From the NCBI GenBank assembly GCA_965219445.1, contig CBDCNQ010000005.1, positions 960,001 to 1,024,000 on the forward strand: a stretch of DNA of 64,000 nt, in the 5' to 3' direction. The position numbers and the translations under genes were made by a program. Source of the stretch: Longimicrobiales bacterium (GTDB lineage: Bacteria; Gemmatimonadota; Gemmatimonadetes; Longimicrobiales; Gaopeijiaceae). The notes beneath the pieces are model-generated. The model worked only from the letters and a program-made list of their open reading frames with translations, did no database searches and had not been told where the DNA came from. This document shows positions 42,065 to 56,625 of this stretch, one piece after another; position 1 is the first letter of the stretch; the number at the start of each line of letters is the position of its first letter.

Positions 42065-42813
42065 AACACGACGAATACCACCGCCAGTTCGCCGACGCCA
42101 TCATCGAGCAGATCCGCCAGGGCACCGCGCCGTGGCAGAAGCCCTGGGGGCCGGGCGAGCGCGTGCTCCCCTCCAACGTCGATACGGGCCGCTCCTACAG
42201 GGGCGGCAACAGCCTGCATCTCGCCGCCGTGGCCCAGGAGCGCGGCTACGGCGACGTGCGCTGGGGCACCTACCGCCAGATCCAGGCCCGGGACGGACAG
42301 GTGCGCAAGGGCGAGCAGGGCACTCGCATCCTCTCGTTCCAGGACCACCGGAAGATCGCCGTCAACGACGAGCGCGGACGGCCCAAGAGGGACAACGAAG
42401 GCAAGCGCGTTTACCGCCACGAGCGCCTCAAGGCGCCCGTCGTCCGCCAGTACACCGTGTTCAACGCCGAGCAGGCCGACGGGCTCCCGGCCCGGCCCGC
42501 GCCAACGGCCGAGCCGCTCTGGAAGGTGCACCAGCAGGCCGAGCAGGTCCTCGAGGACAGCGGGGTGCCCGTCCGTCACGTGGCGGGCGACCGCGCGTTC
42601 TACAACCTGAACCGCGACGAGATCGTGCTCCCGGAGAGGGGACAGTTCCCCTCCGCGAACCACTACTACCAGACGGCGCTACACGAGCTGGGCCACAGCA
42701 CCGGCCACCCGGAGCGCATGAACCGCGAGACGCTCACCCAAGGGATCTCTGAAGGGTTCGCCTCGCCGGCCTACGCGAAGGAGGAGCTCCGCGCGGAGAT
42801 CAGTGCCATGATG
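42061..42813 (+). pseudogene. ardC: ArdC-family antirestriction protein, 5' part, interrupted
   Basis: GTAPWQKPW, YRGGN, WGTYRQ, QVRKGEQG, YTVFNAEQ, zincin HELGH, EELRAEISAMM. Confidence 0.9.
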
Positions 42814-42957
42814 GACACATAGAATCCAGCAGCGTTCGTAGTCATCCGGAGTATTCCACAAACTACCGTATTACCAACGCTTTATAAGTATCCACACCGA
42901 TCTTACCGACTCACAATATCTCTTTACATCCACCTTAATCCCCTATATTATGTGGGG

Positions 42958-44163
42958 ATGAGTACTGTAATAGACACGGCCGCCGCGCCACGGAAAACCA
43001 AGCCCAGGGGTCGCCATCCCTATCAGGCTCTGTCGGCTGCCTTCGTGCGCACAGCCCCGCCGGGGAGGCACGCGGACGGCAACGGGTTGTACCTCTTCGT
43101 CCAGCCGAGCGGAACCCGGAGTTGGATCCAACGCCTCGTCATCCGGGGCCGGAGGCGCGAGCTCGGACTCGGCAGCGTCGTCCTGGTCTCGCTCGCCGAA
43201 GCACGTGAGAAGGCGCTGGCCAACCGCAAACTGGCCCGCGAGGGCGGCGACCCGCTCGCAGAGAAGCGGCGCTCCCAGGGGGTCCCGAGTTTCGCCGAAG
43301 CCGCCGCGAGGGTGGTGGAACAGCAGCAGGCCGGTTGGCGCGATCCGAAATACCCGAAAATCTGGCTGAACAGCCTGGAGCGCTACGCATTCGCGCGCAT
43401 CGGCAAGATGCCGGTCTCGGAGGTGACGAGCGCTGACTTGCTCGAGGTCCTCGGGCCTATCTGGCACGTGAAGGCGCCCACGGCCCGAACCGTCCGCCAG
43501 CGTATGCATGGGGTGCTGGAATGGGCCGTGGCGATGGAACTCCGGACCGACAACCCCTGCGACCGGATCGGGCGAGTGCTCGGCCCTCAGAACGACGTCG
43601 TGCAGCACTTCCGGGCGTTGCCGCATGGCATGGTGGCATCGGCCATTCAGACGGTAGGGGCTACGGATGCGCCCCGGGTCCTGAAGCTGGCCTTCGAGTT
43701 CCTGGTGCTGACGGCGGCGCGGTGGAACGAGGTGCGCGGGGCCGCGTGGGAGGAGATCGATCCGAGAGAGGGTGTGTGGGCGGTTCCCGCCACACGCATG
43801 AAGGCCAAGCGCGAACATCGGGTTCCGCTATGCGGCCGCGCCATCGACATCATCGACGAGGCCCGGACGCTCGGCGACGGCAGTCCGATTGTCTTCACCA
43901 TCGGCGACGGGCAGCCGATCATTGAAAAGCATCTGCGTCGATTGCTCGCAACGCTCGAGATCGCGGCCGTGCCGCACGGATTCCGGTCGAGCTTCCGGGA
44001 CTGGGCGTCCGAGGAAACTGACCATCCCCGCGAGGTCGTCGAGGCGGCGCTGGCGCATGTGGTCCGGAACAAGGTCGAGGCGGCCTACAGGCGAACGGAC
44101 CTATTCGAGCGCCGGCGCCGGCTCATGGACGACTGGGCGGCCTATATAGCCGGCGAAAATTGA
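42958..44163 (+). CDS. P4-type tyrosine integrase
   Basis: Arm-binding DGNGLYLFV...SWIQR...LGLGS...SLAEAR; LTAARWNEV, MKAKREHRVPL, HGFRSSFRDW, ALAH, AAYRR. Confidence 0.93.
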   Translation: MSTVIDTAAAPRKTKPRGRHPYQALSAAFVRTAPPGRHADGNGLYLFVQPSGTRSWIQRLVIRGRRRELGLGSVVLVSLAEAREKALANRKLAREGGDPLAEKRRSQGVPSFAEAAARVVEQQQAGWRDPKYPKIWLNSLERYAFARIGKMPVSEVTSADLLEVLGPIWHVKAPTARTVRQRMHGVLEWAVAMELRTDNPCDRIGRVLGPQNDVVQHFRALPHGMVASAIQTVGATDAPRVLKLAFEFLVLTAARWNEVRGAAWEEIDPREGVWAVPATRMKAKREHRVPLCGRAIDIIDEARTLGDGSPIVFTIGDGQPIIEKHLRRLLATLEIAAVPHGFRSSFRDWASEETDHPREVVEAALAHVVRNKVEAAYRRTDLFERRRRLMDDWAAYIAGEN

Positions 44164-44474
44164 GGACGGAAGGCTGCACCGGTGTGTTGACCAGCCGCCG
44201 TGCCTTGATCGCCGTTCGGTTTCCAATTTGCCCGGTTGGCTTTACTCCTCTATCTGTGCTTCAACGCGTAGACTTCCGGCAGCATCGCGTCTGGAGCACG
44301 GAGCCTTGGCTGTACTAGCCATGATCGACTGGCGTAACATTGGAAAAGGGCCAGGATTACGAGCTGAGGACCGAATAGAGGCACACCCGAGGCGCTGCGA
44401 AAGTCTGGCTGTCGAGCACATCCAGGCATCGGAGGACCGTAAGTCTATGTCAGGAGAATTGCAGAGGTAAAATC

Positions 44475-45026
44475 ATGGAAGAAAGAGGGTGGCTCGATTA
44501 TTTGGTAGCTGTAGGAACGATAGCGACTCCGATTATCGTTTCACTCTTCGGTGTGATGGTTTGGAAGTACCAGCAAGCCATAGAGCGAAGAATACGACTA
44601 GAAGAACAACTTCGAGACGATAGAATTGAAACGTATAACCAAATTCTAGAACCGTTCATTATCCTGCTAATGAACGATGAGGCCTGGGCATCTGATCCCA
44701 AGCACAGGAAGAAAGACAAGTTCACCGTGGGGACGTCAAAACTGTTATCTCTGGAGTATAGAAGGACATCCTTTAGACTTTCGCTCATTGGCTCAGACTC
44801 CGTGGTTTCTTCTTACAATGATCTAATGCAGCATTTTTTTCAGGCACCAGATACTTCTTCATTTTCTGTAAACGATCTCAAAGAAGTGGTCTCACTGCTG
44901 GGAAGTTTTCTCTTGGAAATCAGAAAGAGTATGGGCAACGAGTCTACTAAGATTGATAAATGGGGTATGCTCGAGTGGTTTATAAAAGACATCAGAAATG
45001 TTCGGGACGATCGTTCGAACAACTGA
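44475..45026 (+). CDS. Low-GC hypothetical protein with N-terminal TM helix
   Basis: RBS GAGG; 183 aa; AT-rich; directly downstream of the integrase. Confidence 0.7.
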   Translation: MEERGWLDYLVAVGTIATPIIVSLFGVMVWKYQQAIERRIRLEEQLRDDRIETYNQILEPFIILLMNDEAWASDPKHRKKDKFTVGTSKLLSLEYRRTSFRLSLIGSDSVVSSYNDLMQHFFQAPDTSSFSVNDLKEVVSLLGSFLLEIRKSMGNESTKIDKWGMLEWFIKDIRNVRDDRSNN

Positions 45027-54924: not shown

Positions 54925-55503
54925 ATGACATCCAGGAACGCCGCTGGAACGGCTGCTACGGTCCTTGCGAGCCTTTGCCTCGTCACTTGCAACTCACTTG
55001 TCGCCCAGGATGTAGGCAATCGTGTCCGCGTGACAATCGGTGGAGACATACTGACTGGCGATGTCTTCGAAACAAGCGACGCAGGATTCACTTTGGTTCT
55101 TTCGGAGGAGGAACTGATCGAGGTCTCCGACGCGCAAGTCGAGAAGCTGGAAGTCAGGACGTGCTGTGTCGACTACGCGTGGGTCTATATGACGTTAATC
55201 GGCGGGGGGGCGGGGGGCTTGTTGGGGGTGTTGTGGGACTTCTTGAGTGGTAACTATTCCTGCTCGGAAGCTTCGTTCCTGTGGTGGGAGGACGACTCGT
55301 GTGAAATTCACGGCAACGGTTTCGAGTGGGGAGTTCTCGGCGGAGGCGTGGTCGGCTTTGTTGTGGCAAAGACGGCTTTTAAGGACATGTGGGAGATCAT
55401 CCCGCCGGGTCGGCGTGGTGCGACACTTGGTCCCCTGGTGGACATCGGATCCGGCCCCAACGGGAACACCGCCATGATTGTGGGCGCGCGCATTCGCTTC
55501 TGA
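54925..55503 (+). CDS. Exported/membrane hypothetical protein (tandem paralog 2)
   Basis: RBS AGGAG; VGNRVR, glycine-rich segments, ends GARIRF. Confidence 0.7.
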   Translation: MTSRNAAGTAATVLASLCLVTCNSLVAQDVGNRVRVTIGGDILTGDVFETSDAGFTLVLSEEELIEVSDAQVEKLEVRTCCVDYAWVYMTLIGGGAGGLLGVLWDFLSGNYSCSEASFLWWEDDSCEIHGNGFEWGVLGGGVVGFVVAKTAFKDMWEIIPPGRRGATLGPLVDIGSGPNGNTAMIVGARIRF

Positions 55504-55963
55504 TCGACATCTCTCGTGGACCTGCCTCGCTTTCCCGGGCGGTAACCACATGTCCAAGTCGATTTCTTGGTTTCCGGGAACGCTTCAATCCACCAACGCC
55601 CTTCCCACGGTGAGGTAATAAACCGTCTGCTGCCGCTCGTAGGTCACGAGGGCCAGCCCCTCGGACTGCGCCTCCAGGAGCACCCGGCTGAAGATGGCTC
55701 CCAGTTCGCGGGACTTGCGGCCCGAGACCGACTCCAGCGACAGGTCCACGATCCGCTCGACGTGCGGCGCGAGTTCCGCGGGCACGCGGGCGAGAATCTC
55801 CGGCGGTCGCTCGGCTGGTGGTGACCCCACAGCGCCTACGGCGGCCTACCCCCGGCTCCGGAGACGATAAAACCATCCGCTTGGTTCCTTACAATGCCCC
55901 AACTTCTAGGACCGCCGATGGCCCAAGGTCTCACATAGGAAGTGGTACCGTGCCTGGGGGCAC

Positions 55964-56122
55964 GTCATCGACTGGACGCTGCGCGAGAATGTCAGAGCCA
56001 ACCTGCGGCGATTGGTCAAGCGCATCCTGCGCAAGCACGGCTACCCGCCCGACAAGCGTGATAAGGCGACACGGACGGTGCTCGAACAAGCGGAAGTGCT
56101 ATCTGCTGGCTGGGCAGCATAA
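55964..56122 (+). pseudogene. Type I HsdR extreme C-terminal remnant (DUF3387-like)
   Basis: [46 protein letters not shown]. Confidence 0.8.
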
Positions 56123-56335
56123 CACCGGATCGGCCAGCGCGGATTGGAACATACCGATCTCACGCCCGGCCGCGCGGCCTCGGTTGATCACTCAGAACTC
56201 GTCCACGGACACCACGGACTTCTCATACGGTCGGATGGATTCCCGTTCAGAAAGCGGGAGTGAATGAGGGAATCACGTCTGATATATAAGCAGTAAGTCT
56301 ATTAATATCAGGTATTTATAGATGTTTAGCAGTCG

Positions 56336-56625
56336 TCAGTGCCATGATGACGGGCGAGCGCGTGGGCGTCGGCCATGACCCGAGCCGGGGCGCCGCGTAC
56401 GTCGAGGGCTGGATCGCCGCACTCGAGGAGGACCCGCGCGAGATCCGCCGCGCCGCCGCCGACTCGCAGAAGATCTCCGACTTCGTGCTCTCGCGGCACC
56501 GCGAGCGCGAGGCCGCGCGCGAACCCGCGGCCGTGGCCGCGACCCGCGCGCCCGCGCCGGGGCGAATCGTCCATCCCGTGCCGCCGCTCCCCGTGCCGCA
56601 GCGGACCTTCGGGCCGCGCCGCTGA
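56336..56625 (+). pseudogene. ardC: ArdC 3' part
   Basis: SAMMTGERVGV...AAYVEGWIAALEEDPREIRRAAADSQKISDF continues the frame of 42061-42813. Confidence 0.88.

Follow-up and report, generated by a model that had tools for sequence, protein, structure and literature searches.

An integrative mobilizable element occupies ardC of a conjugative element

In the 64,000-nucleotide stretch of Longimicrobiales bacterium DNA analysed here (contig CBDCNQ010000005.1, positions 960,001 to 1,024,000; hereafter the window, to whose positions coordinates refer unless a contig or locus is named), the antirestriction gene ardC of a multi-copy integrative and conjugative element (ICE) is split by an insert that is an integrative mobilizable element (IME). 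Our preferred interpretation, to which we assign a probability of about 0.75, is that this IME is embedded in its helper, with an integration site in ardC of a VirB-type ICE and movement that would depend on that ICE. The insert of 13,536 bp is bounded by a 14-bp direct repeat (42800-42813 and 56336-56349) that cannot be extended on either side; with up to one mismatch allowed, the repeat occurs twice in the window versus a mean of 0.02 occurrences in shuffled sequences, none of 100 of which contained two copies. Removal of the insert leaves 342 codons without an internal stop, which is the length of uninterrupted ArdC elsewhere in the window genome (labelled G000, its contigs C1, C2 and so on; relatives are labelled G061, G133 and so on), and the Pfam profile MPTase-PolyVal is broken at position 88, with positions 2-88 to the left of the insert and 88-125 to the right. 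In its present state ardC reads two codons into the insert before a stop and would yield a 253-aa product. Uninterrupted ArdC of G000 aligns with residues 7-297 of R388 ArdC (6I89; E 6e-41), with the HExxH motif and the glutamate helix conserved, and on this alignment the break lies just past the equivalents of E228/E229, with the equivalent of Y255 and the last helices lost. The insert encodes a site-specific recombinase and is flanked by att sites, and no match to a mating-pair, coupling-protein or other ICE transfer gene was found within it, one TrbC match being below threshold (E 0.006).

The recombinase is a P4-type tyrosine integrase whose gene starts 144 bp inside attL. It contains Arm-DNA-bind_3, Phage_int_M and Phage_integrase domains (Pfam), its PDB matches are to CP4-like integrase arm domains, and residues R255, H340, R343, H367 and Y377 are unchanged in all six aligned relatives. 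These results agree with a preliminary description of the window, which had reported the direct repeat, an in-frame 342-aa ArdC upon removal of the insert, the absence of a type IV secretion system from the insert and an intact P4-type integrase some 145 bp inside attL. It had also recognised a coupling-protein fragment and a VirB11-like ATPase in the flanks, both of which were recovered with Pfam (TraG-D_C and T2SSE, respectively).

The same ardC position is occupied in other genomes

Nine ardC copies in G000 are uninterrupted at the insertion base, one of them identical to the interrupted copy over the preceding 100 bp, and the same base also marks two further right junctions, whose arms resemble the window arm at 81% and 95% and whose left ends are lost. 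Among 314 genomes of the family, with two candidates scored per genome, a left junction at this ardC base was found in G061, G133, G155, G084 and G260, and just the inner arm in G082. A set of 151 genomes yielded right junctions in G061, G133, G155 and G071, and one is also present in G260. The G071 right junction (L094:19381) has a 2-bp deletion within the overlap heptamer described below, and no close integrase was found in that genome. In a phylum-wide sample of 401 genomes, full left junctions were present only in G000, G133 and G155. The four complete ardC elements measure 13.5, 10.4, 16.8 and 11.3 kb and differ in cargo, and the 300 bp of ardC that precede the site are 86-91% alike among their host alleles.

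A search of the 314 genomes for the integrase, with five candidates scored in each, identified six genomes with a copy at 91% identity or more, and in five of these ardC is the site. The five ardC-site integrases form one clade (SH-aLRT 99 by a quick method) in a tree that covers 134 integrases, with the G082 integrase as its sister (support 87). The preliminary description had regarded ardC as the specific target of the element, had proposed asking whether integrase homologues share this codon, and had named homologues at tRNA or other genes, or misassembled junctions, as grounds for giving the idea up. Filled and empty sites within G000, occupied sites in five other genomes and a single integrase clade uphold it, the junction recurs in independent assemblies, and this one ardC position is almost certainly the primary site of the clade. 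A tRNA gene as target was rejected, as neither the window element nor any of five related loci has one nearby; an ARAGORN tRNA-Ser call at 61013-61106 falls within a TonB-dependent receptor open reading frame (ORF) on the other strand and is probably spurious.

Database proteins point to a wider occurrence. Nine of the best 120 ArdC clusters of a protein collection end within 15 residues of the break, the query itself having favoured proteins that end near it, and of 51 listed cluster members 29 have attL-type tails, nine continue normally and 13 were missed by the motif pattern; by this reading of their tails, at least 29 distinct public ArdC proteins end at this codon. A 97%-identical relative of the integrase lies at ardC in a Longimicrobiales bacterium record, and others occur in Candidatus Palauibacter and Vicinamibacterales. 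With such relatives the lineage is probably marine Gemmatimonadota, and their names suggest a sponge habitat. In metagenome contigs, a 20-nt left-arm pattern gave no match, and at least 80 integrase loci were found at identities of 74% or less, none of the ardC clade among the matches listed. Among 15 listed matches to PLSDB plasmids there was no full-length integrase above 49% identity.

Strand exchange maps to a heptamer

The complete G082 element, which lies in an ABC-3 permease gene, has ends that share exactly 7 bp, corresponding to window positions 42801-42807; it is in this one case that the roughly 7-bp strand exchange expected of P4-type integrases is seen directly. Within ardC the heptamer includes two wobble positions, and attL equals attR at both in five of five complete elements. 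The form CAGYGCC is present in all six distinct occupied left ends versus 20 of 36 empty contexts, a difference between related sequences that suggests a preference. The six bases after the heptamer are two Met codons that are duplicated in the element's own arm, which explains why the identity block extends to 14 bp. The dyad CGTCA-N9-TGACG noted in the preliminary description does exist at attR; it is found there only and is off-centre to the crossover, and we therefore rejected it as the crossover axis.

The element carries a mobilisation cassette

An IME is expected to carry a relaxase gene and/or an origin of transfer (oriT), and matches to relaxase, MobC and MbeD families were obtained here together with an oriT candidate. 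The relaxase aligns to MbeA over its whole length, but weakly (94 bits versus a cut-off of 500), and has a three-histidine-type motif that places it outside the MOB-HEN relaxases, given what we take to be the definitions of the two motifs. In ColE1 the mob genes are mbeC and mbeA, with mbeB and mbeD in overlapping frames. The element resembles this arrangement in gene order, overlapping frames, MobC and MbeD matches and the weak full-length MbeA match, and differs from it in a relaxase far below the MbeA cut-off, a three-histidine-type rather than HEN motif, its integrated state and the lack of any replicon seen. The oriT candidate is conserved at 98% in G133, at 84% in G082 and partially in G000:C1, with no match in G061 or G260, and includes what we take to be a resemblance to a nick site. 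Of the mobC/mbeA/B/D cassette with oriT that had been described earlier, mobC and mbeD thus stand on Pfam matches, whereas the relaxase falls below the MbeA cut-off, the mbeB-like frame has no family match and the oriT is a conserved candidate. From the copies compared, the backbone of these elements is an integrase gene, mobC with the relaxase gene, and variable cargo; it supplies no replacement 3' end, and as a result ardC is truncated.

A separate observation concerns a contig joint in run X3 that connects window position 42801 to 48239 on opposite strands, which could be a second-site insertion of the element near the oriT region.

The host is a VirB-type ICE present in several copies

Several copies of the ICE share the order alpA, virB2, virB3, virB4-like, virB9, virB10, a 309-aa ORF, virB6 and a virB8-like ORF; then a first relaxase candidate, the coupling protein, virB11, a 65-66-aa ORF, ardC, a second relaxase candidate and a 104-aa ORF; and lastly a xis-like ORF of 129 aa followed by a tyrosine integrase. 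Three of these names (virB8-like, first relaxase candidate and xis-like) are presumptive and follow from position. All genes from alpA to the integrase are on a single strand with short gaps. The second relaxase candidate scored 0.90 in Atlas, and six of its 41 homologues matched PF13814, two of them above the cut-off. The window host is a remnant of about 5 kb, enclosed by 139-bp inverted repeats and reaching from the middle of the coupling-protein gene as far as the 104-aa ORF, without virB2-virB10 and without linkage to an integrase; the conjugative element proposed in the preliminary description as host is therefore correct as to the origin of the flanks and incorrect as to completeness. 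At C5:1051-1066 kb, a copy is free of stops from alpA to the 104-aa ORF and is without an adjacent xis-like or integrase gene. G260 contains a full ICE from alpA to the integrase in which ardC alone is split; a stop in its virB10 is only apparent, as it precedes the real start.

G000 contains 18 AlpA-domain matches, in proteins of about 160-180 aa (e.g. C5:1051205-1051696). Seven lie directly before virB2 and five near the right ends of the sister elements described below, and an arm motif in common with the window right end is found downstream of five of the 18 genes.

Related integrases enter other genes of the same ICE

What the preliminary description had missed is that ardC is, on the mapped insertions, one of several ICE genes entered by related integrases. 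Of 27 full-length related integrases listed for G000, 14 have ICE DNA directly upstream, and for nine of these ICE sequence continues on the downstream side, with a direct repeat. Seven ICE sites were mapped in G000: the ICE integrase has two, and ardC, virB11, the xis-like gene, the coupling-protein gene and the first relaxase candidate have one apiece. In G084 the ICE is likewise split at the coupling-protein site. All seven sister integrases scanned have P4-type domains. Their identity to the ardC integrase is 42-68%, they form no exclusive clade, some of the sister elements are oppositely oriented, several carry restriction or methylase genes, and mob genes were seen in only some.

Integrases closer than these to the ardC integrase use three other sets of targets, which were assigned by eye or from patterns. 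In one clade, whose members are 70-73% identical (L097, L099-L101, L103, L105, L106, L108, L109 and L118), the target is a repeat family, as the insertions lie where Thr-Val-Thr-Val stretches of Ig-like repeat proteins are encoded. A large clade of about 30 Vicinamibacterales loci among L120-L172 has sites at gene ends reading FALP-stop, and the integrases of L128 and L131 lie inside a gene that, judged by its motif, we take to be istB-like (the IS21 helper ATPase).

Cargo of the relatives is usually a defence system

The variable cargo of the relatives is, on gene content, usually a defence system and most often type I restriction. The G061 element carries hsdM, hsdS and hsdR, the G133 element has ORFs that match the sizes and starts of those genes (ORF layout only) in addition to a retron St85-type reverse transcriptase and effector (L092:13194-15007), and an intact hsdMSR adjoins the C1 right end in G000. 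In the G260 element, type I-G cas3, cas8, cas7 and csb2 are accompanied by an array of 13 exact repeats (L178:6050-13250) with two spacers duplicated; none of its 12 spacers was matched over its full length in the genome or the compared loci, and two matches of 16-17 nt were disregarded. A Type ISP/IIG enzyme is encoded by the G082 element. Five of the eight ardC right ends examined (window, C5:30944, C1, G061 and G133) have hsdR beside them, either whole or in remnant form.

A proposed helper-dependent route and its alternatives

In the interpretation that we prefer, ardC would serve as a conserved and probably transfer-dispensable landing pad that exists only where the helper ICE does, so that integration there would place the IME in or beside the mating pore. 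As the Met-Met codons beside the overlap are unable to drift silently, the site would be expected to stay recognisable. The IME could then travel as part of the ICE, or could excise, use its own relaxase together with the ICE mating pore and re-integrate into another ardC copy; mobilisation by this ICE is probable. Since no recognisable excisionase was found in 82 scanned small ORFs (67 from the window and 15 from G061, of 134 listed), excision may borrow an AlpA-family protein in trans, and the ICE encodes one directly before virB2. AlpA has been named as an excisionase in the available part of PMC10111431. None of the 82 small ORFs is an AlpA, nor does any of the 18 genomic AlpA matches lie inside the element, and we regard AlpA borrowing as possible at somewhat less than even odds. 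As the window host is decayed, helper functions would have to come from other copies, such as that at C5:1051-1066 kb.

Several results weigh against this interpretation. The ICE relaxases look MOBC-like and that of the IME MOBP-like, and use of the ICE coupling protein by the IME relaxase is hypothetical. The presence of alpA at the ends of five sister elements means that the ICE is not the sole possible source of AlpA. The 90%-identical G082 integrase occupies the ABC-3 permease gene, and its position just outside the ardC clade may reflect a separate target instead of an off-target event. Most copies are damaged, with two of the three right ends in G000 lacking a left end and the G084 integrase internally deleted, and neither an excised circle nor an empty-site joint was found among 15 of 313 joints listed from contigs of four public runs.

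The missing circle is also what would be expected if the window copy were a relic, formerly mobile but now stranded in a defunct ICE fragment and no longer able to excise. The state of the window host, the IS remnants that break the cargo and the missing excisionase fit such a history, but the integrase and mob genes are intact, the identity blocks are perfect and helpers are available in trans, so that we find it doubtful. A one-off secondary insertion or a misassembly is exceedingly improbable: the genome is rich in repeats and no listed contig piece from the four runs bridges either junction, yet five other genomes have the same junction, as do at least 29 database proteins, and unique interior cargo was detected in four of four runs, of which X1 may represent the source sample.

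Two further proposals attribute to the insertion an effect on the host. In one, ICE transcription through truncated ardC into int would time excision to transfer, and the insert would cut off the second relaxase candidate, the xis-like gene and the ICE integrase, leaving the pore on and helper DNA processing off. In keeping with this, int is co-oriented with ardC and lies 143-146 bp from it in five of five ardC-site integrases, the ICE genes form one co-directional series, no promoter-like site was found at attR in a sigma-70-type consensus scan, and an equivalent logic has been proposed for helper-embedded phage-inducible chromosomal islands (HE-PICIs; PMC10111431, available part). The integrase nevertheless has a promoter-like site of its own in the left arm, from a scan that stayed at chance level for promoters and terminators (four promoter-like sites versus 2.9 expected), and the opposite orientation of some sister elements does not accord with read-through; we consider the proposal unlikely. 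In the other, the IME would have been selected to break the antirestriction of its helper since it carries type I restriction itself, and excision would restore ArdC for transfer, which develops the switch for antirestriction that the preliminary description had suggested. The frequent hsdR beside ardC right ends and the loss of the conserved tyrosine (R388 Y255) with the last helices speak for it, as does R388 ArdC, which counters type I HsdRMS and acts in the recipient according to the available part of PMC7213743. The same source, however, reports that the protease activity of R388 ArdC is dispensable for antirestriction, and as the single-stranded DNA-binding domain is intact in the window, truncated ArdC may still work. 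Moreover, uninterrupted copies persist at nine sites in G000 and full-length ardC matches occur in four of five other carrier genomes, the restriction genes of sister elements in other ICE genes indicate that this cargo is not specific to the ardC target, and the 3' half of ardC in G133 is internally deleted, so that excision would not restore the full gene there. With no excisionase recognised, the switch is so far not supported; selection for disarmament appears quite improbable, and if antirestriction is lost, this is most likely in part only and a by-product of the insertion.

Relation to known satellites and implications

The element acts like two known kinds of satellite and yet fails one defining feature of each. 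ICE-embedded IMEs of the Tn5252 superfamily (IMESp2907, IME_maff2, the tet(O) fragment in SNF2, IME_traG and Tn6104) are described in the available part of PMC5704250, and our element resembles them in bearing a relaxase and no pore, in inserting site-specifically in conserved ICE genes, in the occurrence of several IMEs per ICE, in the proposed restoration of the gene on excision and in a proposed hitch-hiking in cis or trans. Those IMEs are found in Firmicutes and use serine integrases to target maff2, SNF2 or traG (PMC5704250), whereas the window element combines a tyrosine integrase of the P4 type with a ColE1-like MOBP cassette, and has an ardC target and a host of VirB2/3/4/6/9/10/11 type in Gemmatimonadota-type genomes. 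With HE-PICIs it has in common P4/PICI-type integrase subclades that each use one site in a helper operon, the lack of a replacement sequence, occasional off-target chromosomal insertions and a co-oriented int (PMC10111431, available part). HE-PICIs, however, insert in late genes of a prophage helper and encode their own AlpA, primase and capsid genes (same part of that source), whereas here the site is in ardC of an ICE, a relaxase is present, no AlpA, primase or capsid gene was recognised, and the ICE-targeting integrases are not one exclusive clade. That the element is a full conjugative counterpart of HE-PICIs, in which a P4-type integrase radiation within one ICE transfer operon delivers defence systems, is coupled through AlpA or read-through and includes an ardC branch that disables antirestriction while carrying type I restriction, seems rather unlikely. 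The uninterrupted host protein aligns with R388 ArdC (6I89, 6SNA) and retains HExxH; it differs from the plasmid protein in that its gene lies in an ICE operon and serves as an integration site.

We did not find ardC or DUF1738 as an integration target in the literature, as covered by titles and abstract openings (supplementary target tables of the TIGER type being outside this scope), and ardC is unmentioned in the available parts of PMC5704250 and PMC10111431 and in bioRxiv work on minimal hitchers. The element adds an antirestriction gene to the primary targets of integrases and, in a marine lineage without cultured members, extends the satellite-in-helper strategy to ICEs and P4-type integrases. 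Related integrases with different targets (ardC, other ICE genes, Ig-like repeats, istB and gene ends) offer a natural series for the study of specificity change. Should truncation abolish antirestriction, the insertion itself would be the means by which a defence element silences counter-defence, in a simple and testable form. Annotation is affected too: many of the short ArdC entries in databases are products of insertion.

Features of the window and its sister elements

Table 1. Coordinates of the IME, its host ICE fragment and related sites (window positions unless a contig is named).
Feature	Position	Strand	Basis or remark
139-bp inverted repeat, left arm; cuts the host ICE fragment in the coupling-protein gene	39441..39579		92% complementary to 57785-57923
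Type IV coupling protein gene, 3' part	39580..40863	+	Pfam TraG-D_C; matches residues 266-703 of a full-length copy
VirB11-like ATPase	40860..41867	+	Pfam T2SSE; full length versus another copy
Conserved 66-aa ORF	41864..42064	+	No Pfam match; present in other copies compared
ardC, 5' part	42061..42822	+	ArdcN and MPTase-PolyVal 2-88 (Pfam); 253-aa truncated ArdC with single-stranded DNA-binding domain and most of the zincin domain
attL identity block	42800..42813	+	Strand-exchange region inferred at 42801-42807
Left arm, conserved, AT-rich	42814..42957	+	Alignment of six attL sites; promoter-like site 42923-42951 ahead of integrase
P4-type tyrosine integrase	42958..44163	+	Same direction as ardC; Pfam domains; ardC clade in tree
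Low-GC hypothetical protein, 183 aa	44475..45026	+	No Pfam, NCBIfam or PADLOC match
Protein with HSDR_N_2 (type I restriction-like nuclease) domain	45211..46002	-	Domain scan
Remnant of second related integrase gene	45867..46091	+	Repeat families D5, D6; 73-75% identical to integrase
Second, inverted partial copy of oriT candidate	46132..46250	-	Sequence read directly; sequence matches
Relaxase, MOBP-type, MbeA-like, three-histidine-type motif	46345..47844	-	Pfam Relaxase; NCBIfam MbeA 94 bits versus cut-off 500
MbeD/MobD-like protein, overlapping frame	46389..46601	-	Pfam PF04899 above cut-off
164-aa overlapping ORF in MbeB-like position	46611..47105	-	ORF kept in five related loci; no family match
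MobC relaxosome accessory protein	47834..48172	-	Pfam MobC and NikA-like
oriT candidate upstream of mobC	48173..48340		Conservation in relatives
1039-aa Ig-like (Big_2) and leucine-rich-repeat protein	48682..51801	+	Domain scan
Insertion-sequence (IS) remnants (DDE_Tnp_1; rve-type)	51602..53593		Pfam; multi-copy in genome
HTH/HNH protein and two hypothetical proteins	53769..55503	+	Domain scan
Last 51 codons of type I hsdR, cut by IS end	55967..56122	+	Matches residues 999-1049 of the intact HsdR next to the C1 attR at 100% identity
Right arm, conserved	56150..56335	+	Alignment of eight attR sites; motif common to sister elements
attR identity block	56336..56349	+	14-bp repeat; attR alignment
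ardC, 3' part	56350..56625	+	MPTase-PolyVal 88-125 (Pfam): last zincin helices and tail
Distant Replic_Relax (MOBC-like) relaxase candidate	56647..57534	+	Atlas 0.90; PF13814 matches among homologues
Truncated 104-aa membrane ORF	57553..57786	+	Residues 1-78 of 104
139-bp inverted repeat, right arm	57785..57923		Pairs with 39441-39579
Sister-element sites, six besides ardC	C5:12180/19009, 587273/583581, 951368, 1181040, 33166, 1190360; C2:207198; C3:8878		Each with its own direct repeat

Copies related to the 139-bp inverted repeats occur at the same two ICE positions elsewhere in G000, and these repeats are possibly the ends of another element. A copy of the ICE-type tyrosine integrase is located at 32898-34055, 5 kb upstream of the host fragment.

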